Notes under the pieces: generated by a model | The model's database searches: none | The model's input: the letters and a program-made list of their open reading frames with translations, nothing else | What the model was told of the DNA's origin: nothing | Program-made: the position numbers and the translations under genes | Virus record (IMG/VR): IMGVR_UViG_3300019776_000657 | Span: 1 to 64,000 of that record | Direction: 5' to 3' (one strand) | Length of the DNA stretch: 64,000 nt | Source: a virus | In this document: positions 3 through 63,213 of the stretch, piece after piece | How the letters are laid out: every line of letters begins with the position of its first letter | Numbering within the stretch: position 1 is the first letter of the stretch

Positions 3-99
3 GGGTCTGTAGCTTAATGGTAAAGAAACGAGCTTATACCTCGTCAAGCAGCGGCCAGATAAGCCGCCGTTGGGGGTTCGAGTCCCTCCAGACCTACCA
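3..99 (+). tRNA. tRNA-Ile(UAU) with an atypical 27-nt variable arm
   Basis: Acceptor GGGTCTG/CAGACCT + A-CCA; anticodon arm ACGAG-CTTATAC-CTCGT; T arm GGGGG-TTCGAGT-CCCTC; V-arm stem GCGGC/GCCGC. Confidence 0.85.
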
Positions 100-103
100 T
101 ATC

Positions 104-180
104 GGGCTGTTAACTCAGTTGGTCAGAGTAGCCGACTCATAATCGGTTAGTCGTTGGTTCGAGCCCAACACAGCCTACCA
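104..180 (+). tRNA. tRNA with CAU anticodon, most likely Ile2 (lysidine type)
   Basis: GGGCTGT/ACAGCCT + ACCA; anticodon arm GCCGA-CTCATAA-TCGGT resembles bacterial Ile2 more than Met. Confidence 0.85.
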
Positions 181-5264: not shown

Positions 5265-5537
5265 ATGAAACTGAAGACATTTGTATACGAAGATTTGAAG
5301 GGCAAGATTAGTAACCGCACAGTATTGGTGGTTCAAGAACCAACCAGTAAACTGAGTGGTATTGATGTAACAGAAGCTAACGATGAAGTCATTGTTAACT
5401 TTGCCTTGGCATACGAAACCGCACGTCAAGCATTCTTGGCAGAAGTGAGTGCACTGCAAGCTCAGTATGACCTGGTTCACCGGTTCCGTCAGTTCTTTGA
5501 GACTAAAATGGATGCGGTAACAGTAGAAGAACTTTGA
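5265..5537 (+). CDS. hypothetical protein
   Basis: 90-aa ORF after the promoter. Confidence 0.7.
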   Translation: MKLKTFVYEDLKGKISNRTVLVVQEPTSKLSGIDVTEANDEVIVNFALAYETARQAFLAEVSALQAQYDLVHRFRQFFETKMDAVTVEEL

Positions 5538-5601
5538 TGGTTGTAATCCCTTCGGATCGAAGGCGTGTTGGACGAGGGTTCGATTCCCTCCAGGTCCACC
5601 A
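5538..5601 (+). ncRNA. ssrA: two-piece (permuted) tmRNA, acceptor piece
   Basis: GGAC-GAGGG-TTCGATT-CCCTC T arm, then CAGGTCC-A-CCA; upstream part complementary to helix 2 of the coding piece. Confidence 0.9.
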
Positions 5602-5612
5602 AAAAGGATTGT

Positions 5613-5768
5613 ATGACAATATTTGACTTACCCTGGTGGCAACAAGCCGTGGGATATGCAGTCTGGATCAATTATTTTTATTGGTTTTACGTACATCCGA
5701 TTCTTTTTGATGGGCCTGACCAGGTTTCGACAGCGCGAGATAGTGAAGACGGCAACTCGGCAATGTGA
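5613..5768 (+). CDS. 51-aa aromatic/hydrophobic ORF in the tmRNA spacer, reading into the coding piece
   Basis: AAGGA SD at 5604-5608; MTIFDLPWWQQAVGYAVWINYFYWFYVHPILFDG... Confidence 0.45.
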   Translation: MTIFDLPWWQQAVGYAVWINYFYWFYVHPILFDGPDQVSTARDSEDGNSAM

Positions 5769-5910
5769 AAGCCGTAGGGTTGGGATAACCCGGCCGAAGC
5801 AGCAAAAAACTTAAATGCCAATGATGCATTTTACGGAGAACTTAGCTTAGCAGCTTAAGTCTTCGGGCGGTTTGAAAAGGTTATCCGTCTTACCAAAAAC
5901 CTTTTCAAAT
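5712..5910 (+). ncRNA. ssrA: two-piece tmRNA, coding piece; tag (A)ANDAFYGELSLAA at 5817-5858
   Basis: 5' GGGCCTGACCAGGTTTCGAC; pairs with 5591-5597 with a G3:U70 wobble; TTAAAT-GCC resume context; pseudoknot 5865-5909. Confidence 0.9.
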
Positions 5911-5947
5911 AATATCTTAAAAATGACAATGATAAATAAATTTGTAT

Positions 5948-5976
5948 TTGCTATTTTTAAGCTATTATAGTATAAT
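5948..5976 (+). promoter_or_regulatory. sigma70-type promoter of the GIY-YIG gene
   Basis: TTGCTA-17nt-TATAAT preceded by AAATAAATTTGTA. Confidence 0.65.
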
Positions 5977-47518: not shown

Positions 47519-50500
47519 TTAAACATATATCTTCATCCACACCATTTGACCATCATTTGTACTAAACTTTTTCCAGACACCATTGACAGCATCAGTTGGT
47601 GCTGTTGGATCTCCTGCTAGTATTGGTACAAATCTTAAGTATTGTGCGTTTGCTGCTCCGCTAGCCACTTGTACAAATGCACTAGCATCCAGTCCATCTA
47701 CTTTGTCAGCATTTAGGTTAGTTACCAGAGTTGTACTAGTTATTTGCATGGTTCCGTCTACATATAATGCTGTGGCCGGACTGACAGCGGCAGCCCTTAC
47801 AGCAATATAACCACTAGTAGCATCTACACCTATACCAGTAGTACCTCCTGTACCTCGTACACCTGCAGTAGTAGCGGCTCCTGTAGTGTTGCCATAAACC
47901 CCATACTCGCCTGTGGTAGTACCATATACTCCTGTTTTTGTGCCACCATTAGCAAATACTCCATAAAAACTACCAGTAGCTAATATACCTATATCTGCTG
48001 TAGGAGTAACAGGTGTTTTTAAATTAGCAGAAAGAAGTCCAGCAGCATTAGCGTTGACCCCTCTAATAACTGCAGTACCGGCAACGTCTAAGTTTCCACT
48101 AAATGTGCCACTAGATCCTGTAATGTCGCCTTTAAACACAGCTGCACCAGTAGTGGCATTAATACTAAATGTAGCCACATCCGCATTTAAGCCAACTATG
48201 CCCTTACTGCTAATTGCAACACCAGATCCAGTAGTAGTTCCATCAGCTGCAATTGCTACAGTTCCTGTTTTAAATCCACCGGCACTTGTAAAGTCTATTG
48301 TTCCACTAAGTGTATCTGCTGCATTTTTATTTAACTTATTAATTACGTCAGCTGCATTACTTACTACAGTAGATGCAGTAGTTGCACCAATTATAGAAGT
48401 AGCAGATAAAGTTCCAGTTATTGTTAAAACACCTGTAGCAGTATCCCAAGTCAATTTATTACCAGCAGAATTACCAATACTAAAATTAGGATTAGATCCT
48501 GAAAAACCTAAAAAGAATCCTGTGCCAGTATCATATGCTGTTTGTCCAGCCTTTATGCTACCTCCACCGTTAAGAGTAATACCTCCCCCGGTAATAGTTA
48601 CACCACTAATAAGACCTGACTGAGCTTGATTTTGAGGAGTTAAATTAGATACATTACCTAATCCTACTTGAGTAGCTGTAGTATTACTGTTTAGAAATTG
48701 ACTAGTATTATAATCGGTGCCACTAACTGTTATACTACCACCAAATACTGCTGTACCATCAGAAGCAATTCTAAAGTTCTTAGCGGATATAGCACCATTT
48801 ACTAAATCAATGGCCATTCCTGCTGTAGCAAAAGCACTGCCGTCAGCAGTACCAGTATGGTTATTAGACAGTATAGAGCCTGCTCTTATCTTACTACCAC
48901 TTATAGTAGTAGAGTTAGCATTGACATCACTGGCTGCACTTCCTGGTTGTAGAGATGAAGCACCAGATGCAGCTCCTGTTTTAACTGTAGATGCTGCAGT
49001 ACCGTCAATAGTTGCAACAGAACTTATACTACCACCAAATACTGCTGTACCATCAGAAGCAATTCTAAAATTCTTAGCGGATATAGCACCATTTACTAAA
49101 TCAATGGCCATTCCTGCTGTAGCAAAAGCACTACCATCAGCAGTACCAGTATGATTATTAGACAGTATAGAGCCTGCTCTTATCTTACTACCACTTATAG
49201 TAGTAGAATTAGCATTGACATCACTGGCTGCACTTCCTGGTTGTAGAGATGAAGCACCAGATGCAGCTCCTGTTTTAACTGTAGTTGCGGATGCCCCATC
49301 AATAGTACTACTACTATTTAGGGATATTGTTCCAGCAATAGTTAAAGCAGTACCACTCCACCTCAAGTAATTAGTGTCATCACCAATATCAAACTTGTAA
49401 ACACCACTACCGCCATCTCCCAAAAAGAATCCAGCAGTTGCAGAACCGTAACTCTTGCCATCACTGTACAAAGACCCACTAGCAGCTATTTTTACACTAC
49501 CCAAGTTTGCACTCAACGCACTCAGGCTACCCACCTTGAGATTACTCAAGTATGGAGCACCCCAGGTTACTGTATTTGTACTGGTAACATACGTACCATC
49601 TGATTGATACATATACTGACCAGCAGTTAAGTTGCTTGTAGCAGTATAGCTCCAAGTTGTACCATCTGTGCTACCAGGAGCAGTACTACCAGTACTAGAA
49701 TTTGGTGTGGCTGGTGCTGTAGCACTATTAGTAACGGCATACACTAAACGGGCTGAATCACCAGTAAGTCCTATACTACCATCTTGCCGGTATCCAACAC
49801 TATTTAAGGTAGCACTTGACCAATTTGTTGGAGTAGTTGTAGCACTACTTAAGTCAGTTATTACCAAGTTAAGTTGATAAAGAGTATAACCACTTCCAGG
49901 AGAACTACCGGCTGAAGCTGCCCAGTTAGTTGGAGATGCAGGAGGATAAGCACTTATTGCTCCACTACTCCAAGTATAGTCAAATGCTTGTGTGTACGTA
50001 CCAGCACCACTGTTGCTCCAACGATAACAACTTACAGTAGTACTCTTGTTACCTGCAGGACCTGTAGCACCTGTAGCACCTGTAGCACCTGTAGCACCTG
50101 TAGCACCTGTATCGCCTTTTACGGCTTCTATATAAGGTGCACCCCAAGTACCTCCAGTATTAGTAGTACTTCCTTGATTGACAACAAATACATAGTCACT
50201 TGCCCATGTGGGAGTTGTTGTTGTTGTTGGTTGTGTTACTAACCATCCACCAGCCGGGGCTGTTAATGCTCCTGTAGAAGCATTAAAGTTACCGCCTGTT
50301 GGTGTGTTTGGTGTAGGAGTATAAGCTGCTTGTAGATATACTGTAGCAGCATAAACAACTTTACCATCAGTACCTGTTTGTCCATTTTTAGCAACTATAA
50401 TTGGATCGCTCCAAGTATTCAGTGTTAACTGTGTAGCAGGAGTAGTTGTAGAAGCCAAAGCAGTAGTCATGTACACTGCTCCAGGATATGCAGGAGTTGT

Positions 50501-53500
50501 TGGCATTGTTAGTGACCAACCTGTGGTACCCCCAGTTTGTGCTCCTAACACAGTTCCTGTAATAGTATACAATACACTGGTTGGTTTAGTAGGTGGACTA
50601 GCAGTATCTGATGCAGAAATGTAGAGTTCAACTCGTTCTTGGGTTGTACCTGCAGTTCCTATATTACCAGTTTTGCTTTTGCTTAAACTAAAACGGCTGA
50701 CTTGACTGGCATAACCACTCTTTGTAGCAGTAATATCGATAAACGCGCTATCTGTGCCTGTTGCTATGTTAGTAACAGTAATAGTTTTATTGCTATCAGT
50801 ACTAGTATAGGTTAGTGAAGCACTACTAGCTGGTGAAGTAGTAAATGTCCAGTTAGCACTATCATCTGTACCACCCAACAATATTGTAGCAGTAGTTGTT
50901 GCACCTGTATAACTCAACACAGTGCCATCATTAGCAGCAGGAATAACATGACTGTCATTACTGAGGTTCATGGCCACACCACCAAGACCGGTTTTACTCT
51001 TACTCAAACTAAATCTACTGGTTTGAGTAGTATAACCTGTTCTTGTAGCAGTGATATCGATGTACGCACTGTCTACACCTGTCGCCATGTTGGTAACAGT
51101 TACAGTTCTATTGCTATTAGTACTAGTATAAGTTAATGAGGCGTTACTGGCTGGTAGAGTACTAAACGTCCAATTGGCACTGTCGTCTATGCCACCCAAC
51201 AATATTGTAGCAGTAGTTGTTGCACCTGTATAACTCAACACAGTGCCATCGTTCTGCGCAGGAACTACATGGCTGTCATTGTTGAGGCCAATAGATGTTG
51301 CTGAAGTACCTGGACTACCCTGTATTGATTTCGACAAGGACTGTACAGCTATAACAGACGAAGTGGTTCCATTTGATCTTGTAAAGCCTATTGTATAGGT
51401 TACAGTGGCATTATTTCCAGTTATACCAGTATGATCGCCTATAGTCACTGTTGTTGTACCAGTTCCACTGGTTATAGAACCTGGAGTAGACAATCCGTTT
51501 GCTGCAATTCCAACAGAGTTTATCTGAACATAATTATCACCTTCAAGTACTCTTATAGTAGTACCTGATCCGGTATATGTTACAACTCCCAAGTTGGTAG
51601 TTTGTAGTTGATGTGTGGGATTACCTAGGACTACAGTTATTCCACTATCGCCATCTTTTACAGCTGAAACAATTGTGGCATCGGTAAGGCTATCTTGGCC
51701 AATATAACAAGTTACAGTTACTTTGGTGTTTGTACCAAAATCTGCTATTCTCAAATATACCACATCTGCATTTGTACTATTTTGTGCAATTGCAGAACCG
51801 CCAGTTGCTGCTGTATACAGTGTTACTGTAGGAGACGTACTCCATTTTACACCATTAACAGTATTTTGTTTTAAAGCAGTTAATTGACATACTTGATCGG
51901 CTATGTTGACGTTATTTTTATCTCTATTAAAGACGTATCTATCTGCTGTTAAGAATAATCCCTTGGCTATTCCACTCAAGACTTGTGGAGTACTCCACTC
52001 AGCGTCTGGAATGCTATCTGTATCTCCAGTATTTGCAGCACTTGCTTGTGTTATCCATACCACTTTACCCTGTGTTTCACTGGGAATTGCATCACTCCAG
52101 TAGTTGGGTGATACGCCAACAGGGAATCCAGTAATATTTCCTGTACTAAAAATATAGGTACTGGTTGTACTGGTATCTCCAACTGCTCTGGTAAAGTCAG
52201 GAGCTACAGTAGTACTATTATTTCTGGCATACAAATATATTGTGGCTGAGTTTATACCATTGTCTGTAAGAATTACAGGTGTGCTCCACTCAGTAGCTGC
52301 AAGAGTATCTGTATCTGTAGCACTAGAAGCACTTATTACTGTTACATAGAGTGGGTTACTGCCTTCTGGTATTGACTTTTGCCAGCCATTTAACAAGGCT
52401 GTATTTGTTATTTCTTTTGTAACAAAGTTGTAGGTTATTTCACCAGGATTACTTGTTAATGCTGTTGCACTTCTTTGATAGGCATAAACAAGTGCAGTAT
52501 TTAAACCAACACCACCCTTAAAAACAACTTGAAGTTCTTCTTTGTCTAATACTTCTGAACTAGTTTCTTCTGCATATAATCGTACAACAAACTTAGTACT
52601 CAAGTCTGTAGAGCTAGGACTAAAGATTATATCATTGGTTTCTGAAGACTGTACTCTTTGTTCAGTTCCTGCTGTAGTGCCTACATAAGGAGTAACTCCC
52701 AGCCAACCATAGTTGGATTCTACACTACCCACATACTTTTTACCAGTTGCCCTGATTTCATTAAACGGTCCCTCAACAATGCTGTTGGGGCTGTTCTTGT
52801 AAACCACTTTTGTACTGGTTACTATTCTGTAGATTGTATTGCTTTCACCATTTTTTACTTTTACAAAACTTTGAGTTTTTGTAATTTCAAAAGGTATTCC
52901 TGTAAGGCTCTTTCCTACAATAGTGAATACAATGTTGCCCAAGTCCTCAGTAAACTCTGTTAGATCGCCCAACACAGCACTAGGATCACCACTTATACTA
53001 TCCTGTACACTCTGTAGTGTTCCAGGTGTAACATTGGTTTCTGTTATAGCAGTAATTTTCCAACGACCCAAAGTAGTACCAGCATCATCATAGGCCAACA
53101 GTGTGCCGCCTTGATACACTGATATTTCAGTACCACTAAACAGTAGGTTGGGACTGGTACCATCAAAGTTTGCAGGTACTTGGTGGCGATCGTTGCTGAG
53201 CTCTACTCTTATAGTAGCCAATTCAATTGCTGTATAGTCAATGTTGAGTACGGCGTCTTGTCTACTCAAGATATTGCTGTCATCAACATGTCGAGCTGCT
53301 ATAACATACTGGCCTGTAACAGCTTCGTCCCAAGTCCAATTTGTTAATGGACCTTGAAACAGTGTTATTCCAGTTTCCCAAGTGGATCCAGGAGCAGTTA
53401 TATCTTTGATAATTGTATAGGTATAATCAGGAGCAGGACAACGATCCCATTGAAACTTCATTTTTCCTGGCAACACCAAGAAGTCAAAGTTTTGTACATC

Positions 53501-56500
53501 ATCTGGAGGATTGCGCTTTCCTATGACTTCATGAGAAATCCAAGGAGTCCAATTACCAACTCGACCACTGTTGTCTATGTATCGTAATCTTACTCTATAA
53601 GTCTTACCTTGTTCTAGGTCTGTAAATGTAATGCTGCTTTTATCTATTTCTGTTGAAAAATATTTATAACTAGCACTTTCATTGGTTCCTATGTCAATTT
53701 GACCCTGTACTGTTGTAACTGTTTTTGGAAGGGTTAGGTCAGCAAAAAACGGCACTCTCATGGCAAAAATAAATCCACGAGTAGCAGTTTTAATCATAAC
53801 ACTTTCATCACTAACAATGCGCTCTGGCATTATTTCAGGTACTTTGTCACCAATGTCATCTATTTGTAACTGTGGAGTATCTGTTATGTTTGGAAAGTAT
53901 GCTAAATTTGTGTAATTGTAGTATTGTGTGAATATGTTATAGGGATTGGGATTATCTGGGCTAGTATCTACACCATAATCAACAAGAGTCAATCTGGCAT
54001 TCTTGGCCCCATTAGTGGGTTCAATTGAAAGCACTAAAAGGTCTTGAGTTTCTGTTTGTAGTTCGCCAAACATAAACAAATCGCCATCACCTGCTTCATA
54101 CTGAGTGGTTGTGGCTGTTGTTTGTATTTTGGAGTAGTAACCGTCTTTTAATTTTATAGTTGCTGTTATTGCGGTGCCAAGAGCAACATATGATACTGTT
54201 CCAACAGCTTTGTATGTTATACTGGTAGTGGTTACTGAAGTAATCACAGCAGTTGTGTTAGAGATTCCAGAGGCTGTTGTTGTAACATTTACTCTGTCAC
54301 CAACGCTAATTGGATGGTTTCCAATTACTAGTGTAACAAAGTTACCAGTAGCTGTAACACCATAAGTTGAAGCATTAAAAGTAGTTTTTACTTGACGTTC
54401 AGTGTTTAAAACTTGATTAGTACCAACTCCAGTATTACTAACACCTCTAAATCTAATAGTATAGTTTTTATTTTCTGCAATGGGTAGATCTTCGTCTAGT
54501 TTAAGAACATCATCACTTATTCTGTCTGTTATTCTGCCGCTCTGAATTCCCCACATGGGTACGTCATGCAACACCTTAACGCGATCACCACGATTACATA
54601 CTAAATACTCTATATCAGTATTAAGTGTATAAATTTCTGGACGAAGTTTGATTTGTGCATAATGCCAACGACCAAAATCTTCTGCAATCTCTGCATTTGT
54701 AATACCAGGCAGTGTTATGGTTTCAAACAGTTCTGCGCTATCTGCTGTTTTACCCGCAGATGGTAGTATTACTTCATTTTCTTGATAGTTTTTGCTCTCA
54801 TCAAAAAACTGTATCTTAAATGCATCAGGATACTTGGGCAGTGCTTTCACACTCTCAAAACCCCAACTGTTATGAGGAGTAAAGTGTTGAACTACTACAC
54901 TTTGTGCTTCATCAATAATTACAGTCCACTTGCCATCTTTTAATGCAGGACTACCACGACCGGCTGCACAAATATCACGTAGTACTTCCAATACACTGCG
55001 TTGGGCTGCTAACACACCATTATACTCTAATGCCTTGCTAACATTGCCAGAAATTTTCTTTATTTGATAGGTCTGACAGTAGTTGTACCAATACTGAAGT
55101 TTTTGTACGTCTACTTTTGATAAGATCTCTGATTCCAGTATTCTTTGTGGGTTAGCTGGATGTGTTAAAACGTGTAGGAATAGTGCTGCAGGATTACTGG
55201 TTGGTGCTAGGGTGGTCCAGTCTGTTAAAACTGTTTGTGAGTTTACTATAGATGTATTTACTGCATTAACATTGGTACCTGTCCATATCTTACAGATACT
55301 TTGTACTACTGCACTGATTCCATCAATAGTACCATTGAGTTGATCTGTTGCCTTTATCTTGATAGCAGTTTTAGCAACTTGACAGTTGTAAGGTGCCCAA
55401 TCTATTGGACTATAGTTAGGATCTGTATAGTAACCAGTAACAGAGTGCAACACAGAGGTGTGGCTTAATCTGTCTGTGTCGTTTGGCTCACTATCATCAA
55501 CTGTAGTACGTCTAATTTTGAATTCTACACCCTCATATTGAGGATATGTACCAGGTTCTGGACTATCTAATAAATATTCAATAGTCTTTGTAAATCCATC
55601 TTTTTCGCGCTTGGTAATAACAACATCGGGTTGGGGTATCCAAGATCCCCAAGCAGCTGTGCTTTGTGCTGTTGCTTTGATCTTGTACCTATACTCAACT
55701 GCAAAAGTCACTGAGGCTTCAAATGTTTTGCCAGAATCACCACCACTGATCTTGATCAACCTCAAGCCCTGTGGAAAAGATATAGCCACAACCGCTTTTT
55801 GTAACTTTTGAGTAAATGTGCTCTCTACCCAATTTGTAGTGCTCTGTTGAAATACAACAGCTGTTTGTTGAAGTTCTGTATCTGAAACATCTAGATCTGC
55901 TTGAACAGAATCTCTTTTTAAGATTGTATCTGAGTATGGTTGCCAAGTGTTAGAATATCCAGTACCTACAAATCCACCACTTGAGTTTGTTTTTCTCATG
56001 TAGTAATTGCCAGTATTATAGTTATCAGCCCACTCTTGACTGTCAACAACTACTGCTTTTTGCTTACCAGTAACAGGATCTAATGTTGTAACTGCTTTGA
56101 AGTTTGCACCTACTAGTTCCAACCCACTAAAGTTTTGTACTACATCACTGGCGACTATTCTTTCAAAAGCTGTTTTTTGTGCTTTTCTTTGTTCTTCAGT
56201 AAGAGCTGTTGCATAACTAACAGTTACTTGTTCAGTATTTTCATAGTTATCCCATTGTGAGGCACCTACTTGCAGTGTGGTTTCATCAATGGATAAAGGA
56301 CCATAACCCCAAGCCAGCATCATGTTTAAATAACTAATACTCTTGCTTTGATTTAGTTCACCTACTAAAGCTTGTTCTAGTTCTGCACCTGCAGCATCCT
56401 CAAAGGTAACAAACGAACCTGCTCCAAGTGGAGGAGTTATTCTTACTTTACCCAACACAACAGGTATTGCACCATATCGGTTGGCCTGATTCTGCCCACC

Positions 56501-57394
56501 ACCAGCAATCATTTGAGCTTCACTGCTGCCAGGATCTCTTTGTGTTGGTGGTCTAATAGGAAAAGCTGCGTTGATTAAGGCACCGCCTGCTAACATAGTT
56601 GCTGCAGATGCTGTGTACGCTACTGCATGCGCAGCTGTAAAACCGCCAGGTATTGCACCAGCAGCTGTTAATTCTCCTCCGGCCAGTTCAAAAGCAGCAG
56701 GACCAATAACTTGATATGCAACTACTACAAGAGCAATGGTTAATACCATTCTCATTGTACCCTTGTCTTGTGGAACAGCGCGGTATTCCACTACATCTGT
56801 ATGATTTAATATTGTACCTGCCCAAGCTGTACGAGGTACTAATACACCATTAACAAAAATGTGTACAGTGCTCTCTAAAACTTCTGCAGTATTATATTGA
56901 GATTTGACAAGGCTGTACAATTGTTCTAGATTAGTACCAGGAACTATAGCAAGAGTAACTCGCTCTGTTTTGAGGGGGTGTGGAACTGCATTTAATACCA
57001 CACCAGCAGCCTCACGATAGCGGTAAAAACCGTGTACACGGTTATTCCACTTTACACTATCAAAACTCTGGATACTACTACCACTGCCCTCTTGAGCATG
57101 TAAAAACTGTGTGTCACTAACGCATACACCAACGTGTGATAGGTGCCCCATTACTCGTAATAGTACAATACAGCCCTCCGCTGGAGTATTTACCTCTTCC
57201 CAGCCTTCACGGTATTGACTTATCAATTCCTCGCTGCGGGCTCTGTCATCTTCTAGGTAACTGTCAACAAAACTGGGTAGTTCTATGTTGTACTCATTTT
57301 TATAAACAAGACGCACTAAACCCCAGCAGTCAATGCCGGCTTCATCACGACCATGATGTTTGTAGGGAATACCAAGATATTTATTTGACCACAT
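47519..57394 (-). CDS. giant central tail/host-specificity protein: NlpC/P60 (gpK-like) + gpI-like + gpJ-like fusion with a long C-terminal fibre
   Basis: GIDCWGL...HVGV...FLHA; NQANRYGAIPVVLG; FPQGL; SNPA; GDRV.V.HDVPMWG; FnIII-like segments. Confidence 0.88.
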   Translation of the reverse strand: MWSNKYLGIPYKHHGRDEAGIDCWGLVRLVYKNEYNIELPSFVDSYLEDDRARSEELISQYREGWEEVNTPAEGCIVLLRVMGHLSHVGVCVSDTQFLHAQEGSGSSIQSFDSVKWNNRVHGFYRYREAAGVVLNAVPHPLKTERVTLAIVPGTNLEQLYSLVKSQYNTAEVLESTVHIFVNGVLVPRTAWAGTILNHTDVVEYRAVPQDKGTMRMVLTIALVVVAYQVIGPAAFELAGGELTAAGAIPGGFTAAHAVAYTASAATMLAGGALINAAFPIRPPTQRDPGSSEAQMIAGGGQNQANRYGAIPVVLGKVRITPPLGAGSFVTFEDAAGAELEQALVGELNQSKSISYLNMMLAWGYGPLSIDETTLQVGASQWDNYENTEQVTVSYATALTEEQRKAQKTAFERIVASDVVQNFSGLELVGANFKAVTTLDPVTGKQKAVVVDSQEWADNYNTGNYYMRKTNSSGGFVGTGYSNTWQPYSDTILKRDSVQADLDVSDTELQQTAVVFQQSTTNWVESTFTQKLQKAVVAISFPQGLRLIKISGGDSGKTFEASVTFAVEYRYKIKATAQSTAAWGSWIPQPDVVITKREKDGFTKTIEYLLDSPEPGTYPQYEGVEFKIRRTTVDDSEPNDTDRLSHTSVLHSVTGYYTDPNYSPIDWAPYNCQVAKTAIKIKATDQLNGTIDGISAVVQSICKIWTGTNVNAVNTSIVNSQTVLTDWTTLAPTSNPAALFLHVLTHPANPQRILESEILSKVDVQKLQYWYNYCQTYQIKKISGNVSKALEYNGVLAAQRSVLEVLRDICAAGRGSPALKDGKWTVIIDEAQSVVVQHFTPHNSWGFESVKALPKYPDAFKIQFFDESKNYQENEVILPSAGKTADSAELFETITLPGITNAEIAEDFGRWHYAQIKLRPEIYTLNTDIEYLVCNRGDRVKVLHDVPMWGIQSGRITDRISDDVLKLDEDLPIAENKNYTIRFRGVSNTGVGTNQVLNTERQVKTTFNASTYGVTATGNFVTLVIGNHPISVGDRVNVTTTASGISNTTAVITSVTTTSITYKAVGTVSYVALGTAITATIKLKDGYYSKIQTTATTTQYEAGDGDLFMFGELQTETQDLLVLSIEPTNGAKNARLTLVDYGVDTSPDNPNPYNIFTQYYNYTNLAYFPNITDTPQLQIDDIGDKVPEIMPERIVSDESVMIKTATRGFIFAMRVPFFADLTLPKTVTTVQGQIDIGTNESASYKYFSTEIDKSSITFTDLEQGKTYRVRLRYIDNSGRVGNWTPWISHEVIGKRNPPDDVQNFDFLVLPGKMKFQWDRCPAPDYTYTIIKDITAPGSTWETGITLFQGPLTNWTWDEAVTGQYVIAARHVDDSNILSRQDAVLNIDYTAIELATIRVELSNDRHQVPANFDGTSPNLLFSGTEISVYQGGTLLAYDDAGTTLGRWKITAITETNVTPGTLQSVQDSISGDPSAVLGDLTEFTEDLGNIVFTIVGKSLTGIPFEITKTQSFVKVKNGESNTIYRIVTSTKVVYKNSPNSIVEGPFNEIRATGKKYVGSVESNYGWLGVTPYVGTTAGTEQRVQSSETNDIIFSPSSTDLSTKFVVRLYAEETSSEVLDKEELQVVFKGGVGLNTALVYAYQRSATALTSNPGEITYNFVTKEITNTALLNGWQKSIPEGSNPLYVTVISASSATDTDTLAATEWSTPVILTDNGINSATIYLYARNNSTTVAPDFTRAVGDTSTTSTYIFSTGNITGFPVGVSPNYWSDAIPSETQGKVVWITQASAANTGDTDSIPDAEWSTPQVLSGIAKGLFLTADRYVFNRDKNNVNIADQVCQLTALKQNTVNGVKWSTSPTVTLYTAATGGSAIAQNSTNADVVYLRIADFGTNTKVTVTCYIGQDSLTDATIVSAVKDGDSGITVVLGNPTHQLQTTNLGVVTYTGSGTTIRVLEGDNYVQINSVGIAANGLSTPGSITSGTGTTTVTIGDHTGITGNNATVTYTIGFTRSNGTTSSVIAVQSLSKSIQGSPGTSATSIGLNNDSHVVPAQNDGTVLSYTGATTTATILLGGIDDSANWTFSTLPASNASLTYTSTNSNRTVTVTNMATGVDSAYIDITATRTGYTTQTSRFSLSKSKTGLGGVAMNLSNDSHVIPAANDGTVLSYTGATTTATILLGGTDDSANWTFTTSPASSASLTYTSTDSNKTITVTNIATGTDSAFIDITATKSGYASQVSRFSLSKSKTGNIGTAGTTQERVELYISASDTASPPTKPTSVLYTITGTVLGAQTGGTTGWSLTMPTTPAYPGAVYMTTALASTTTPATQLTLNTWSDPIIVAKNGQTGTDGKVVYAATVYLQAAYTPTPNTPTGGNFNASTGALTAPAGGWLVTQPTTTTTPTWASDYVFVVNQGSTTNTGGTWGAPYIEAVKGDTGATGATGATGATGATGPAGNKSTTVSCYRWSNSGAGTYTQAFDYTWSSGAISAYPPASPTNWAASAGSSPGSGYTLYQLNLVITDLSSATTTPTNWSSATLNSVGYRQDGSIGLTGDSARLVYAVTNSATAPATPNSSTGSTAPGSTDGTTWSYTATSNLTAGQYMYQSDGTYVTSTNTVTWGAPYLSNLKVGSLSALSANLGSVKIAASGSLYSDGKSYGSATAGFFLGDGGSGVYKFDIGDDTNYLRWSGTALTIAGTISLNSSSTIDGASATTVKTGAASGASSLQPGSAASDVNANSTTISGSKIRAGSILSNNHTGTADGSAFATAGMAIDLVNGAISAKNFRIASDGTAVFGGSISSVATIDGTAASTVKTGAASGASSLQPGSAASDVNANSTTISGSKIRAGSILSNNHTGTADGSAFATAGMAIDLVNGAISAKNFRIASDGTAVFGGSITVSGTDYNTSQFLNSNTTATQVGLGNVSNLTPQNQAQSGLISGVTITGGGITLNGGGSIKAGQTAYDTGTGFFLGFSGSNPNFSIGNSAGNKLTWDTATGVLTITGTLSATSIIGATTASTVVSNAADVINKLNKNAADTLSGTIDFTSAGGFKTGTVAIAADGTTTGSGVAISSKGIVGLNADVATFSINATTGAAVFKGDITGSSGTFSGNLDVAGTAVIRGVNANAAGLLSANLKTPVTPTADIGILATGSFYGVFANGGTKTGVYGTTTGEYGVYGNTTGAATTAGVRGTGGTTGIGVDATSGYIAVRAAAVSPATALYVDGTMQITSTTLVTNLNADKVDGLDASAFVQVASGAANAQYLRFVPILAGDPTAPTDAVNGVWKKFSTNDGQMVWMKIYV
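48730..49284. repeat. near-identical tandem duplication, period 294 bp
   Basis: 48730-48990 matches 49024-49284 apart from a few substitutions. Confidence 0.9.
50061..50110. repeat. 9-bp tandem repeat CCTGTAGCA (collagen GAT triplets)
   Basis: five copies. Confidence 0.9.
50670..51290. repeat. diverged tandem domain duplication, period about 321 bp
   Basis: NDSHV.PA.NDGTVLSYTGATTTATILLGG.DDSANWTF...RFSLSKSKTG twice. Confidence 0.85.
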
Positions 57395-58281: not shown

Positions 58282-61200
58282 TTATCTCCTTATTAATTGT
58301 GGTTGTAGTCCAAAAGTACCACGAATAGAACGATTGGCACTACTGCCACCACGAGTGATTTCTCCAGCAGTCATGTCGCCAACAACAACCTCTACACGTC
58401 GATTTCCGCGACTGTCTGTGGTTTCACGAGCTTCAGCACGTTCTGTTGAATAGTTGTTGACAACTACTTCTACTGACCCGCCACCTCCACGAACACCCAG
58501 GTTGCCCTGACCATCGCGTTTCAATGGCATGATCGCCTCAGGGCCGGCTTCACCCATCATACCGGTGCCCTTGGCAAACTTGAATAGGGTAGGGCTGTCG
58601 ACTATGGAGTTGGTAAAAGTACCACCCATAGCAAACTTGTGTACGCCATTATCAAAAGCATTTCCTTTAGCGCTCTTTAATAAAGCAAACTGTGAGCCTG
58701 ATAAACTTGCTGTACCACCTCCAGGGCCTCCTAAGCCTATACCACTGCCGCCAAACATACTACCAACCAAGTTCATTAAACCAGGACGGAATGCTTGATA
58801 CATCTCCTGCATTTGCATTCTAAGTTCTAATCTTAACAAGTCTGCCAGCATGGAGTTTATTAGACTCTTGAAGTTCAATTTACCAGTCTGAGCAAACTCA
58901 ACTATGGCATCAGCCATTTTGTCAAAACTACTTCTAAATACTTCTGCATAGCCTTTTTGGCGAATATCTAATTCATTTATTAGATCTATTTCTTTTAATC
59001 TTTGAGCATTTAAACTCTGAGTTAATCTAATTCTATCTTCATAGGCTGTATTTACTCTGCCTTCATCCTGTTTTTGTTGTTCTCTAACTGCGATTAAAGC
59101 TTCAACAGTGTCAGCAGCTTGAGCCTTTATTTGTGCTTCTCTTCTTATAGATGCTAATTTTGTTTCTTTATCAAGTTGTGCCTCTCTCAAATCTCTTTGA
59201 TAGGCCATACTTTGAGTTTCTAAATCAAGTGCTTTTTGTTTGTCTTGTGCTTGTTGAGCGGTTATTGCTCCAATAGATACTAAATAGTCTAACTCAGTCT
59301 TTTTACCAGAAACAATAGCACTACTAATATCTTCTTCTATCTTAGCTCTGGTATTAGCAAAATCTAATTCTCTTTGCGCAATAGCTGCAGTATTTCTTAT
59401 AGTTTCTGCCTGTCTTGCTAACTGACTCATTTCTTGTCTAGCAAGTAGTATTTCTGCAGTTTGGAAATACTCTTTTCTGGTATTTTGCAACCTTTCAAGA
59501 GCAGATTGTTTTAGTACTTTATCTGTTTCTTCATTATATTTTTTCTGATCTGTATTTACTCTAAATTGAGCATCATTCATTGTTTTTTCAATATTTTGTA
59601 TTTCCAATGCTGTTTCAGCTTGCTGTCTCAAATTCAGTAAGGTTTTATCTACTACTTCTACATTTGAAGTTAAGATCTTTAATCTATCTAATTCTATTGA
59701 TTTAAGTTCTATATTTTGCTGTAGTTCTTTCTGTAGTACTGCTTGTTGTTCAGCCTTCTTTTGATAACCTTCAGTGACAGTTACAGCTGCTTTTTCACCT
59801 TTAATCTGTGTTGTTTTTCTTCTTGATTCTACTCGGGCCTGTTCTGCAGCAGTAAAAGCTTTTGCTTGTTCGGGAGCTGTTTCCATTAATTTTTTGAATG
59901 TTAATGTTCCCTGTATGTAACTCTGAGCAGCTTTTAATCCAGCTGTAGCAGCTATGATACTTTCTCGTTCTACTTGAGCAGTATCTAATTCAGATTTTAC
60001 ATTTTCACCGGCCATTTGCCTTTCAGTATATCTTAATATATCTCTATTAGCTAGTTCTAATCTTCTTAAGTTATTTTGTTGATCATTTAAGTTATTTGCC
60101 AGTAACATAGCATCTACTAAGCTTTGTGTAACTTTTATGTTATCCAACTGTATGTCTAATTCTCTTCTCTTTAATTCTGCTTCTATTGTGGCGGTGCCAG
60201 GACCTGTTCCACCTGCAAGATTTGCTCTAGAAATAGATAAGGATGCCAATTGTGCAGCTTCAGATAGTGGACGATATAGTAGTGTTATAGCTTTTTTGGC
60301 AAGATCTGAAAGGGCTAAATCTGTTATGGGTTTTATTGTTTCTTTTAAAGCGGCATTAAATTTTTGGAGTGTTTCTGCTGCTTCTTTTTGTACAGCTTGA
60401 GCTTTTTCTAAAGCTTTAATTGCTGCTTCTGGATTCGTTGTTTTAACTGTAGTTAATCTTACATCATAACCAAATGCTTCTCCAACTGCTTGCGGTGCAG
60501 CCGCTCCTTGATTTTTTAATTCTTGTGTAGTTTGTTCAGCTTTTTTTAACTGATTTTCATAGTATCCAGCCGCTAATGTCAATCCAGTTAACTGTGCTCT
60601 ATAAGACTCCAATCCTTTTTGCACTTCAGGAGAGAAAAATCTCATTTTACCTACATCATCTATTATGTTTCCTAACTCTATTAACGCCAACTTTGGAGTT
60701 TTAAAAGCTTCGGCCATAGATATACTTGTAGTTATAAATCCTAGAGCTAACTTACTTAAAGGATCTGTAGGGGCCATACTTGTAATTAAATCATCATAGG
60801 CTTTTCCCAACTTTTCAAAACTATCCTTTAAAGAAGTAGAAGATGTTGATATCTTTTTAAACTTTTTTGTTGTTTCGGACTCTAATACTGTGATCTGTTT
60901 AGTAATATCTACTAATAAATTATCTGGTATATTTAAAAGTCCGCTGGCCAAAGATTTACTATCTATTTCTTTTATATTTAGTATTTGTTTTACTTTTTGT
61001 ACAAATTCGGATTTAACTGTGCCTTCTGGCATCAACTTAATAGCGTTGCCTAGACTATAAGCAAATTGCTTGGAAAATTGCTGTTCTGTGCTCTTTCCAA
61101 ATACACTCATTATGCTATTTACAAATCTATCCCAACCATTGGATGCAAATCTCACTTTATCTAAGTCAACTACTAGTTTAGTTAAACTATTAGATACTTC

Positions 61201-63156
61201 TTCTAAGGCATTTGCTACTGCTACAATATTCTGTGAACTCATCAATTTAAATGGGTCCATTTTTGACATCTCAAAAAAGACTTCATTTGCCAGTTTTCCA
61301 GCATCTTTTGTAGCATCCAAGGACTTTTCGAAGTTTTCAGACTCTTTTTGATTATCACTCATTGCACTGTTTAGTGCACTGAATGCTGCTGTAGCTATTC
61401 CTATTGCGAGTAACCAAGGCTGCATAGCATTGAATGCTAACATTAGGGTTGAGCTAAGTATTCTTATTCCGCCACTAGCAAGCGTAGTTATTCTGGTAAA
61501 TCCTGTTAATGTTTTTCCTGTTGTAGCAGTTCTTTCATTAAATTCATTAAACACTCCAGGACCATTTTTTACTTCATCAACTAATCTTTTCCAAGCTTCT
61601 TTAGCTCCCATTATTTGGGTATTTTCACCAACATTGGATAAAATCTTGGTACTAGCGGCTGCCATTTCTGCTCTACGAGCAACTATGTCTTTGGCACGAC
61701 CTTCCAATGTATTTTTTGCTCCAGCTGTTTCAGCTCCTGAAAGTGCAGCTATTCTTTTATTTTCTTCTTGAATATATACCTGATTTAATAGTGCTGCTTG
61801 TTTCATCTGACCTAGCCGTACTTCTTGTTTGGCTATGTCTTGATCCATTATCTTTAAGTGCTCTACTTCACTTACATTTATATTATCACGAAGTGTTTTT
61901 AATTTTATTAAGGCATTTTGTTCTTTTACTAGTTGAGTTTCAATAGCTTTTTGATTTGCTACTGCTGCTTGGGCATCGTACTCCTCACCCATTACTCTAC
62001 CAAGTATTTTTGATTTTGGAGAAAGTACTTGTCCTAGAGCTGTTTGAGTTCCTGCTAAAGCCTGATTAGCTGCGTCGGCTGCTTCTTTTGCATCCTGCAA
62101 ACCAGCTCTCATCTTCTTGCCAATATCAAATTCTTCATATGAATCGCGAAGTCTTTTTGCAGTAGCAGCAGCTATATCAGCATTTTTAACTAATTCTTGT
62201 CTCCAAGAAGTAAGGGCAGGAATTGCTTGTTTTACTAGACTAGCACCTATAGCCACCAATAGAGAGGAGAGCGCAGTTGGACTTTCTGACAATAGTTTTA
62301 TAAGTGGTGTAAGTACAGTATTTACTAAACTCAACCCACTTTGAGCCACATTACTTATAGTAGCAGACAGTTTACTGTATGGATTTACATCTACCTTGAT
62401 ATTTCCGAATTTTTGCTCTGCTTCTGCTAACACAGCGTTGGCAAAACCCTGACGTTTTTCAAAGTCAGTTAGTGATGATACTGTTTTACCTAGAGTTCTA
62501 GCATAATCCTGATTTGCTTTATCTATTTTTACATAGATTCCGAGTTCGTCTAATAGTTCTGGCTCTATTTTGCTAATACCGCGACTCAATCTGCTGATGG
62601 CATCAGGCATTGAAATTCCAAGAGCAGTAGATGCCTTCTTGGCTGCATCACCAATACGCAATATTTGCTGACTGCTCAATCCTGCTGCTGAACCTTTTGT
62701 AGTGGCCTCCAATGCATCGCGCATAGATATAGCACCGTCAGTAGCATCGTATAATCTTTTACTCAGGGTTCCTAATGCTTGTCCACTACTAACACTTAAC
62801 TTGTCTAGTCCGGTTATCATATTTGTAGTGTCAGCAGCCTTACTTAATGCGCTAAATGCAGCTGTAACTGCATATATATTTGCTGCAACAGTTGCGTATA
62901 GACGTACTACTCCGCCCAATCCCTCAGATTGTTTTGCAAAATCACGGGCTTCGGCACCCGTACCACCAGTAGCCCGACCACGATTATAGTCTATTACTTG
63001 TTGGCTACTAACAGCCCCACCTCCACCCATAGCTACGCTCCTAGCCAGCTTTTGGGTTTTGGTGAGTTCACCGTTGAGTTCTTTTGTTTCGCCAGTTCTT
63101 TTTTGGATTGAGTTGCCACTATCGGACAACATCATAGAAATATTTACATCTGCCAT
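58282..63156 (-). CDS. tail tape measure protein
   Basis: about 1620-aa helical protein; T5-pb2-like YATVAANIYA N-terminal part; lambda-type C-terminus (FAMGG...MGEAGPEAIMPL). Confidence 0.92.
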   Translation of the reverse strand: MADVNISMMLSDSGNSIQKRTGETKELNGELTKTQKLARSVAMGGGGAVSSQQVIDYNRGRATGGTGAEARDFAKQSEGLGGVVRLYATVAANIYAVTAAFSALSKAADTTNMITGLDKLSVSSGQALGTLSKRLYDATDGAISMRDALEATTKGSAAGLSSQQILRIGDAAKKASTALGISMPDAISRLSRGISKIEPELLDELGIYVKIDKANQDYARTLGKTVSSLTDFEKRQGFANAVLAEAEQKFGNIKVDVNPYSKLSATISNVAQSGLSLVNTVLTPLIKLLSESPTALSSLLVAIGASLVKQAIPALTSWRQELVKNADIAAATAKRLRDSYEEFDIGKKMRAGLQDAKEAADAANQALAGTQTALGQVLSPKSKILGRVMGEEYDAQAAVANQKAIETQLVKEQNALIKLKTLRDNINVSEVEHLKIMDQDIAKQEVRLGQMKQAALLNQVYIQEENKRIAALSGAETAGAKNTLEGRAKDIVARRAEMAAASTKILSNVGENTQIMGAKEAWKRLVDEVKNGPGVFNEFNERTATTGKTLTGFTRITTLASGGIRILSSTLMLAFNAMQPWLLAIGIATAAFSALNSAMSDNQKESENFEKSLDATKDAGKLANEVFFEMSKMDPFKLMSSQNIVAVANALEEVSNSLTKLVVDLDKVRFASNGWDRFVNSIMSVFGKSTEQQFSKQFAYSLGNAIKLMPEGTVKSEFVQKVKQILNIKEIDSKSLASGLLNIPDNLLVDITKQITVLESETTKKFKKISTSSTSLKDSFEKLGKAYDDLITSMAPTDPLSKLALGFITTSISMAEAFKTPKLALIELGNIIDDVGKMRFFSPEVQKGLESYRAQLTGLTLAAGYYENQLKKAEQTTQELKNQGAAAPQAVGEAFGYDVRLTTVKTTNPEAAIKALEKAQAVQKEAAETLQKFNAALKETIKPITDLALSDLAKKAITLLYRPLSEAAQLASLSISRANLAGGTGPGTATIEAELKRRELDIQLDNIKVTQSLVDAMLLANNLNDQQNNLRRLELANRDILRYTERQMAGENVKSELDTAQVERESIIAATAGLKAAQSYIQGTLTFKKLMETAPEQAKAFTAAEQARVESRRKTTQIKGEKAAVTVTEGYQKKAEQQAVLQKELQQNIELKSIELDRLKILTSNVEVVDKTLLNLRQQAETALEIQNIEKTMNDAQFRVNTDQKKYNEETDKVLKQSALERLQNTRKEYFQTAEILLARQEMSQLARQAETIRNTAAIAQRELDFANTRAKIEEDISSAIVSGKKTELDYLVSIGAITAQQAQDKQKALDLETQSMAYQRDLREAQLDKETKLASIRREAQIKAQAADTVEALIAVREQQKQDEGRVNTAYEDRIRLTQSLNAQRLKEIDLINELDIRQKGYAEVFRSSFDKMADAIVEFAQTGKLNFKSLINSMLADLLRLELRMQMQEMYQAFRPGLMNLVGSMFGGSGIGLGGPGGGTASLSGSQFALLKSAKGNAFDNGVHKFAMGGTFTNSIVDSPTLFKFAKGTGMMGEAGPEAIMPLKRDGQGNLGVRGGGGSVEVVVNNYSTERAEARETTDSRGNRRVEVVVGDMTAGEITRGGSSANRSIRGTFGLQPQLIRR

Positions 63157-63213
63157 AGCCTCTCCTTGAGAGATGAGCACGCACAAAAATTAGTGCTTAT
63201 TCAAGTAGCTCTA

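Follow-up and report, generated by a model that had tools for sequence, protein, structure and literature searches.

The AUA codon is what compels bacteria to use lysidine, since their IleRS inspects the anticodon and does not accept U34. The E. coli enzyme prefers LAU over UAU 360-fold in kcat/Km, and W905 in its Zn-binding anticodon domain is responsible for the discrimination against UAU (Taniguchi 2013, PMC3575796). In Mycoplasma mobile, AUA is read as isoleucine without lysidine by a tRNA-Ile2(UAU), TilS being missing or bypassed, and TilS-independent tRNA-Ile2(UAU) was reported for Bifidobacterium and Neorickettsia too (PMC3575796). These tRNAs are ordinary, the M. mobile type having a class I structure of ~76 nt, and the solution lies in the enzyme, either through Arg865 in M. 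mobile IleRS or through a eukaryote-type IleRS. The partner IleRS of the M. mobile type carries Arg or Lys at the position of E. coli W905, and it was suggested by Taniguchi et al. that a eukaryote-type IleRS might accept UAU by itself (PMC3575796).

A long arm and a UAU anticodon occur together in the nematode nev-tRNA-Ile(UAU), which are eukaryotic, have a Leu-type body and were leucylated in vitro, with no GAU loop reported (PMC3333845, PMC4300185). They also occur together in allo-tRNA(UAU), which belongs to a set of irregular, long-armed tRNAs of bacteria and phages in which UAU is a predominant anticodon, the acceptor branch is 8/4 or 9/3 and the identity is that of serine (Mukai et al. 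2017, PMC5389517).

The gene described here is a tRNA-Ile(UAU) at positions 3-99 of a 64-kb window (the whole stretch of DNA that was analyzed), which is the start of a 79.8-kb virus contig of 41% G+C. Like the M. mobile tRNA it has a UAU anticodon and would read AUA as isoleucine without lysidine, but it is 97 nt long with a 27-nt extra region instead of ~76 nt, and it is the tRNA itself that bears an additional hairpin with a GAU loop, the design being found in phages whose hosts, E. coli among them, have an ordinary IleRS. In contrast to the nev-tRNAs its body is of class I type, and in contrast to the allo-tRNAs the family has 7/5 geometry with A73; neither an 8/4 or 9/3 branch nor G73 or another Ser-type identity was found in the 3-99 tRNA. 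Each of the nearest reports (M. mobile tRNA-Ile2(UAU), nev-tRNAs and allo-tRNAs) lacks at least one defining feature of this five-arm UAU/GAU design, and no description of the design was found in full-text searches of the literature. An earlier note on this DNA had allowed that long-arm Ile(UAU) tRNAs might already be reported from phages, which was not confirmed in searchable papers.

Structure and setting of the gene at 3-99

The gene at 3-99 (+ strand) is a real tRNA. It was called as tRNA-Ile(tat) by ARAGORN and scored 55.5 bits with Rfam RF00005 (gathering score 29), with 46-68 handled as an insertion. The same five-helix fold was returned by RNAfold with a z-score of -1.5, a value that is not significant alone and is uninformative for a single tRNA. 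The 97 nt include A73 (96) and an encoded CCA (97-99). By sequence parsing, the 5′ strand of the acceptor stem, GGGTCTG (3-9), pairs with CAGACCT (89-95), the first pair being G1.U72, and the acceptor/T geometry is the canonical 7/5 (7-bp acceptor, 5-bp T stem). The D arm (12-26; GCTT-AATGGTA-AAGA) is of class I type, with a stem (12-15/23-26) of three Watson-Crick pairs and a G10.A25 mismatch and with a 7-nt loop, AATGGTA, containing A14, A15, G18 and G19. The first anticodon arm, assigned to decoding, lies at 28-44, with the stem ACGAG/CTCGT (28-32/40-44) and the loop CTTATAC (33-39), in which UAU is at 35-37; numbered as C32 U33 U34 A35 U36 A37 C38, this loop has the canonical U33 and A37. 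Thus both the UAU in a canonical loop and the discriminator A73 that characterize an AUA-reading tRNA-Ile are present.

The extra region (45-71, 27 nt, + strand) is located between the UAU arm and the T arm. It begins with a linker, CAAGCA (45-50), which may lengthen the second helix via an A.C mismatch (RNAfold), followed by the second arm (51-67), which consists of a 5-bp stem (GCGGC, 51-55; GCCGC, 63-67) and the 7-nt loop CAGATAA (56-62) with GAT at 58-60. A second linker, CGTT (68-71), is similar in length to a canonical 4-5-nt variable loop and would supply U48 with its last U; the T arm (GGGGG TTCGAGT CCCTC, 72-88) was identified by sequence and Rfam. The earlier note had placed UAU at 35-37 and described a 27-nt variable region holding a 5-bp GCGGC/GCCGC stem and a 7-nt loop with GAT at 58-60, and every coordinate proved correct by sequence, ARAGORN, Rfam and fold. 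No conserved intramolecular complement to GAU was found by inspection of the T loop, D loop and acceptor stem.

With bacterial tRNA-Ile1(GAU) the gene shares A73, the class I D arm and a heptaloop centered on G-A-U, while differing in the whole UAU hairpin that stands between position 26 and the GAU arm and in the A that usually replaces U33 in the phage loop. With the class II tRNAs (Leu, Ser, Tyr, Sec) the design shares an extra helix between the anticodon and T arms and a total length of 88-101 nt. Class II arms, however, have 3-5-nt loops of free sequence and are accompanied by a modified D arm, whereas the five-arm design combines a class I D arm and a UAU anticodon with a 7-nt loop holding a fixed GAU, which was found in 51/58 viral (among the matches listed) and 15/18 cellular A73 variants.

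The virus encodes a DnaB-like helicase, DNA polymerase A, ribonucleotide reductase, a tape-measure protein, a protease-capsid fusion, a portal protein and terminase, a gene content that makes it a siphovirus-like phage; a tRNA array and a two-piece tmRNA are present as well. The contig begins at the five-arm gene, the upstream flank lying outside the sequence. In the closest relative that includes the upstream region (L329), tRNA-Ile(GAU) comes first and is followed by a conserved spacer of ~210 nt, the five-arm tRNA (one base different) and a CAU tRNA. The ~210-nt spacer of the relatives (L329:1176-1387, L332:1483-1700 and L335) contains internal inverted repeats, and the window is cut at its end; nothing was found when Rfam was searched with this spacer. 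In L332 and L335 the slot is again bounded by this spacer and this CAU tRNA but contains a different five-arm subfamily without an ARAGORN call, and a third variant occupies it in L360, L367, L368, L372 and L375. The presence of different subfamilies in one slot shows that the position is retained although its gene is exchanged.

The neighboring CAU tRNA of the window (104-180, + strand) was called as Met by ARAGORN, but the closest counterparts among 5,423 E. coli genomes are CAU tRNAs bearing a tRNA-Ile annotation (ileX type; 83% identity across 92% of the query). The phage tRNA is therefore probably a lysidine-dependent tRNA-Ile2, and the phage probably carries both AUA strategies side by side. 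The order of five-arm tRNA then CAU tRNA was also observed in cyanophage DSL-LC02 (L002).

Other RNA elements were noted in the window. The two-piece (permuted) tmRNA at 5483-5949, with the tag ANDAFYGELSLAA, scored 118.6 bits with the permuted model and 98.7 bits with the betaproteobacterial model, and tags in relatives include ANDEVFALAA and ANDSVYALAA. A tRNA-Asn shows 96.5% identity with a tRNA from Limnohabitans phage DC31, which together with the tmRNA weakly hints at a freshwater betaproteobacterial host. A long palindromic hairpin at 1497-1588 matched plant miRNA precursor models on both strands, far below thresholds, and a sub-threshold tRNA match (26.6 bits) at 1862-1932 is possibly a decayed tRNA.

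Conservation and distribution of the GAU hairpin

When the first 8 kb were compared with cultured phages by megablast, nothing beyond short tRNA matches was found. The first homologues were obtained with sensitive BLAST in an Acinetobacter siphovirus, a Synechococcus myovirus and a Pectobacterium phage; these have the same UAU loop and carry CAGAU(A/U)A loops on differing stems. IMG/VR was then scanned with a pattern in which the UAU arm and T loop were fixed and the region between them was free, which matched at least 115 loci. The matches listed parse to 94 unique sequences, nearly all of them good 7/5 tRNAs with A73 and mostly with an encoded CCA. The same pattern was run over 185,579 cellular species genomes and matched 59 stretches.

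Conservation was counted in unique combinations of extra region and discriminator. An N-(A/U)-GAU-N-N hairpin was present in 51 viral combinations with A73 and absent from 7 (among the matches listed), present in 15 cellular combinations with A73 and absent from 3, and present in none of the 8 cellular combinations without A73. Poor acceptor stems characterize five of the 7 viral exceptions (L037 and four tRNA-like members of one group); in L012 the loop is present on a mismatched stem, leaving L095 as the sole true absence among the matches listed. Two of the 3 cellular exceptions with A73 (L241 and L255) retain GAU in context. In the inner stem of the second arm, each of four pairs is formed in 93-100% of the 56 distinct arms among the matches listed, with 18-25 double changes each. 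The covariation score over these 56 arms was 0.951, compared with 0.199 ± 0.029 for shuffled pairings (0/500) and 0.09-0.21 when the partners were slid. Because these alignments were anchored on the loop, GAU is invariant in them by construction, and the unbiased figures are the counts of 51/7, 15/3 and 0/8.

Retention of the loop across homologues had been set beforehand as the test of the earlier note's proposal, free variation being the outcome that would count against it. In both scans, with the extra region left free, GAU was retained while the stems changed. This pattern indicates that the GAU loop is under purifying selection on a covarying stem and, since it recurs in dozens of independent homologues, that the second arm is beyond chance. 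The conserved part of the loop is only A/U-G-A-U: positions 37 and 38 vary among A, U and G, and in phages an A usually occupies the place of U33. The second stem is often only 3-4 bp across the family. A73 is found in all good family members and A15-U48 in 74/88, both among the matches listed. An extended outer helix of the second arm was considered as a family feature and rejected, the outer pair being formed in only 26/56 arms (among the matches listed).

The association was also examined in reverse, by a scan in which CAGATAA was required at the right distance from a T loop with nothing else fixed. It returned 97 unique hits, 65 of them with a UAU arm just upstream, the loop flanks being varied (CUUAUAC, UUUAUAU, CUUAUAA). 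The remaining hits comprised a few class I tRNA-Ile(GAU), one unrelated uncalled RNA family and chance matches inside other tRNAs; among all 97, no convincing five-arm tRNA with a non-UAU anticodon was found. In the cellular scan, 8 long-armed UAU tRNAs have G, C or U as the discriminator (6 of them G73, which is Ser-like), and the GAU loop occurs in 0/8. Taken at the level of sequence, the GAU arm goes together with UAU and with A73. Stretches that combine this anticodon arm and T loop in a short, class I form numbered 12 in all of IMG/VR, compared with at least 115 for the long form, and are at least 10 times rarer.

The 8 tRNAs without A73 (L250, L258, L260, L262, L270, L279, L287 and L292) come from Acidobacteriota, Parcubacteria, Saccharibacteria and one alphaproteobacterium (Pseudochelatococcus) and have Ser-like or odd bodies. 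Their features place them as a different kind, near the allo-tRNA/Ser-like class, and insertion of serine at AUA or a regulatory function is conceivable for them.

Several related forms were noted during these scans. On one cyanophage contig (L097:2208-2454), two forms of tRNA-Ile(UAU), five-arm and then class I, directly follow one another, and a CAU tRNA comes immediately next. In L119, L133 and L188 (also L139), a class I phage tRNA-Ile(GAU) has CAGAUAA as its true anticodon loop, with A replacing the near-universal U33. A recurrent, uncalled RNA-like element of the form ...TTAATGGA-CAGATAA-TCTCTTGGT-GGTTCGATTCC... has a T-arm-like end and a GAU heptaloop and no recognizable cloverleaf; it was found at L120, L126, L135, L146, L150, L153, L171, L199, L206, L219, L221 and L222. 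L004, L013, L053, L073, L100 and L105 are tRNA-like, with a perfect UAU arm and T arm and no normal D arm or acceptor pairing where expected. The phage contigs L037 and L129 encode many long-armed tRNAs (85-91 nt) for the normally short Asn, Asp, Glu, Met, Gly, Lys, Thr and Gln.

Hosts of the carriers span Enterobacteria, Acinetobacter, Vibrio and cyanobacteria, and the design also occurs in Actinomyces chromosomes. It is present in the cultured coliphages vB_EcoS_CEB_EC3a and vB_EcoD_Opt-719, where it adjoins tRNA-Arg(UCU). These two phages and Acinetobacter phage qsb1 have just two tRNAs each, Arg(UCU) and the five-arm tRNA, which cover AGA and AUA. AGA and AUA are two classic rare codons of enterobacteria.

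About 38 of the 59 cellular stretches are Actinomyces chromosomes (~38 species). The second loop (CUGAUAA) and linker (AAGGUC) of the Actinomyces gene are exactly the anticodon loop and variable loop of the species' own ordinary tRNA-Ile(GAU), and the gene resembles a tRNA-Ile(GAU) with a UAU hairpin inserted after position 26. The TilS N-terminal model matched 0/5 Actinomyces genomes, compared with 14/14 control genomes. The complete genome of A. timonensis has 51 tRNAs, including one Ile(GAU), the five-arm Ile(UAU) and only two CAU tRNAs. Since the latter are the initiator and one that is necessarily the elongator Met, the five-arm tRNA is the only candidate AUA reader there. A pattern search of 121 genomes of the Actinomyces order gave 3 matches, all of them five-arm. 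The Actinomyces IleRS is of eukaryote type: beyond about residue 786 it no longer aligns with E. coli IleRS, and it lacks the Zn-binding C-terminal domain in which W905 lies, so that the W905/Arg865 comparison is inapplicable.

AUA decoding and the proposed role of the second arm

In the phage that carries the 3-99 tRNA, AUA makes up 31% of Ile codons (464/1495), or 19 per 1000 codons. It is used most heavily in tail genes, and the replication genes use few. There are 96 AUA among the 3291 codons of the giant tail protein and 60 among the 1634 of the tape-measure protein (47519-57394 and 58282-63186, respectively, - strand). The meaning of the codon was assessed from the portal protein and the helicase, each aligned with ~120 homologues, at 20 AUA positions. 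AUA columns contained I at 0.64, V at 0.21 and L at 0.09, similar to the AUU columns (I 0.74, V 0.16, L 0.05) and the AUC columns (I 0.70, V 0.13, L 0.05), whereas Leu-codon columns contained L at 0.77. AUA sites thus appear to behave like Ile sites, with the proviso that relatives may use AUA at the same sites. Alignments of Actinomyces orthologues provided only ~14 independent AUA columns, in which Ile/Val, Met and Thr are mixed and none is dominated by Leu. The best explanation of the 3-99 gene is a working tRNA that reads AUA as isoleucine and supplements the host during infection, its charging being predicted. The phage also carries the ileX-like CAU tRNA, so its AUA supply would not rest on the 3-99 gene alone.

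The isoleucine identity set is centered on the anticodon and A73, and t6A37 is a strong IleRS determinant in E. coli (PMC9976931). Given that E. coli IleRS disfavors UAU, a phage requiring a TilS-independent AUA reader faces a charging problem, and the conserved GAU heptaloop, the universal A73 and the occurrence in coliphages fit a second arm that supplies the missing determinant. We therefore infer that IleRS, whose recruitment by the extra arm the earlier note had listed among its possibilities, is the partner of the second arm. In the proposed mechanism, the UAU arm, one nt after the D stem (position 26) and with a canonical loop, would be the arm read by the ribosome. The GAU arm, followed by a 4-6-nt linker ending in U48, would occupy the normal place relative to the T stem and present to IleRS the G34-A35-U36 that it normally requires, and together with A73 this would allow the host IleRS to charge the tRNA without TilS or lysidine. 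Each arm is at the canonical distance from one half of the molecule, so that either could in principle stack on the D stem; most likely, the UAU and GAU arms would exchange places there to give IleRS access, or alternatively IleRS may contact a class II-like side arm.

That the UAU arm decodes while the GAU arm serves as a surrogate identity element for IleRS is given an even chance. The fuller proposal, that the tRNA bears two identities on two arms, UAU for the ribosome and a GAU stand-in for the synthetase, so that AUA could be read without lysidine or a change in IleRS, is put slightly below even. Several findings count against a surrogate identity element: the importance of t6A37 sits poorly with variable positions 37 and 38 in the second loop, an A mostly takes the place of U33 in that loop in phages, class I tRNA(UAU) genes do exist in phages (the 12 stretches), one of them right next to a five-arm gene in L097, and Actinomyces keeps the GAU arm despite a eukaryote-type IleRS that may accept UAU anyway. 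In addition, the standard class II shape points the side arm away from the anticodon-binding domain, so that an unproven rearrangement would be needed.

Some of these findings would be accommodated if the GAU loop were recognized by a factor other than IleRS, such as an enzyme that modifies U34 or A37, a factor in processing or quality control, or a contact related to the ribosome or EF-Tu that limits misreading of AUG. Conservation of only A/U-G-A-U, without the full Ile identity set at 37 and 38, and the retention of the arm in Actinomyces both favor such a factor, and a further check on decoding would help, given the misreading of AUG by UAU tRNAs that occurs on E. coli ribosomes (PMC3575796). 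It would have to be shared by Enterobacteria, Acinetobacter, Vibrio, cyanobacteria and Actinomyces, a range that IleRS fits, and the identity of the Actinomyces second loop to the Ile1 anticodon loop again points to the synthetase. We know of no enzyme that recognizes a GAU heptaloop outside the anticodon position, and on balance this alternative is judged unlikely. The placement of the two arms, the first separated by one nt from the D stem and the second by 4-6 nt from the T stem, would equally suit a decoder with two heads, in which the arms swap on the D stem and either is shown to the ribosome, so that one tRNA reads AUA as well as AUU and AUC. The perfect CUGAUAA with U33 in Actinomyces is consistent with this, and as both readings would insert isoleucine there would be no cost in fidelity. 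U33, however, is present in 1929/1951 viral tRNA anticodon loops, so the A at its place in the phage second loop argues that this loop is not read by the ribosome; with a second stem that is often only 3-4 bp, and with a normal tRNA-Ile(GAU) also present in carriers (L329 and Actinomyces), such dual decoding is improbable. If the arm were instead a remnant of an insertion into, or a duplication of, the anticodon arm of tRNA-Ile(GAU), with a structural but no sequence-specific job, the appearance of the Actinomyces gene as a tRNA-Ile(GAU) with a UAU hairpin inserted after 26 would be explained. The loop of such a relic would be expected to drift, and GAU is instead kept across subfamilies with differing stems and bodies, even where sister phages swap in another subfamily; only a slender chance, below that of dual decoding, is allowed to it.

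The remaining alternatives had been raised in the earlier note. Anticodon-loop changes by which phage tRNAs escape nucleases are known, and the CAGAUAA loop is shared by a few class I phage tRNA-Ile(GAU) (L119, L133 and L188), as might be expected if the arm were a decoy or shield against a host defense nuclease cutting the tRNA-Ile(GAU) anticodon loop. To our knowledge, however, there is no Ile-specific anticodon nuclease, and a decoy would leave unexplained both the tie to UAU and the Actinomyces chromosomes that keep the arm in their only AUA reader. The proposal thus gained no support and is regarded as very improbable, lying between dual decoding and a relic. Charging with an amino acid other than isoleucine, by LeuRS or another enzyme, would leave AUA recoded or ambiguous, as was suggested for the nev-tRNA-Ile(UAU) of nematodes. 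The five-arm tRNA shares A73 and a long extra arm with tRNA-Leu, and nev-tRNAs with UAU were leucylated in vitro (PMC3333845, PMC4300185). The D arm, however, is of class I and not Leu type, LeuRS offers no reason for the conservation of GAU, and the AUA columns match Ile columns with Val, not Leu, as the main alternative; no Leu-dominated AUA column was seen in the small sample of Actinomyces orthologues, and an Actinomyces genome that lacks TilS has no candidate reader of AUA other than this design. Mischarging is accordingly disfavored and is held to be the least probable of the explanations considered.

Detection and significance

ARAGORN was rejected as a census tool because at least two subfamilies were missed. 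It gave no call for the whole five-arm subfamily with the D arm TTGCTAATATTGGCCTAAGG..., either in metagenomic loci (L332:~1700-1800, L335:~940-1040, L360/L367/L368/L372/L375) or in Pectobacterium phage Arno162 (L003:1488-1587). Related coliphage copies at L413:394-495 and L414:394-495 are unannotated in their records. Since standard tRNA finders miss subfamilies, phage tRNA counts and the codon-supply analyses based on them are incomplete.

The T1-like coliphages that carry the five-arm design would provide an easy test system for the preferred reading, in which the GAU arm acts as a surrogate identity element for IleRS. If that reading is true, the design would offer a ready-made scaffold that uncouples decoding from charging and would be useful to genetic-code engineering. 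A synthetase that reads the anticodon would then find what it requires at a place other than the decoding arm, which would be a new principle of tRNA identity. For the phages and Actinomyces that carry the design, this would be a third way round the AUA problem, in addition to TilS and an altered IleRS.
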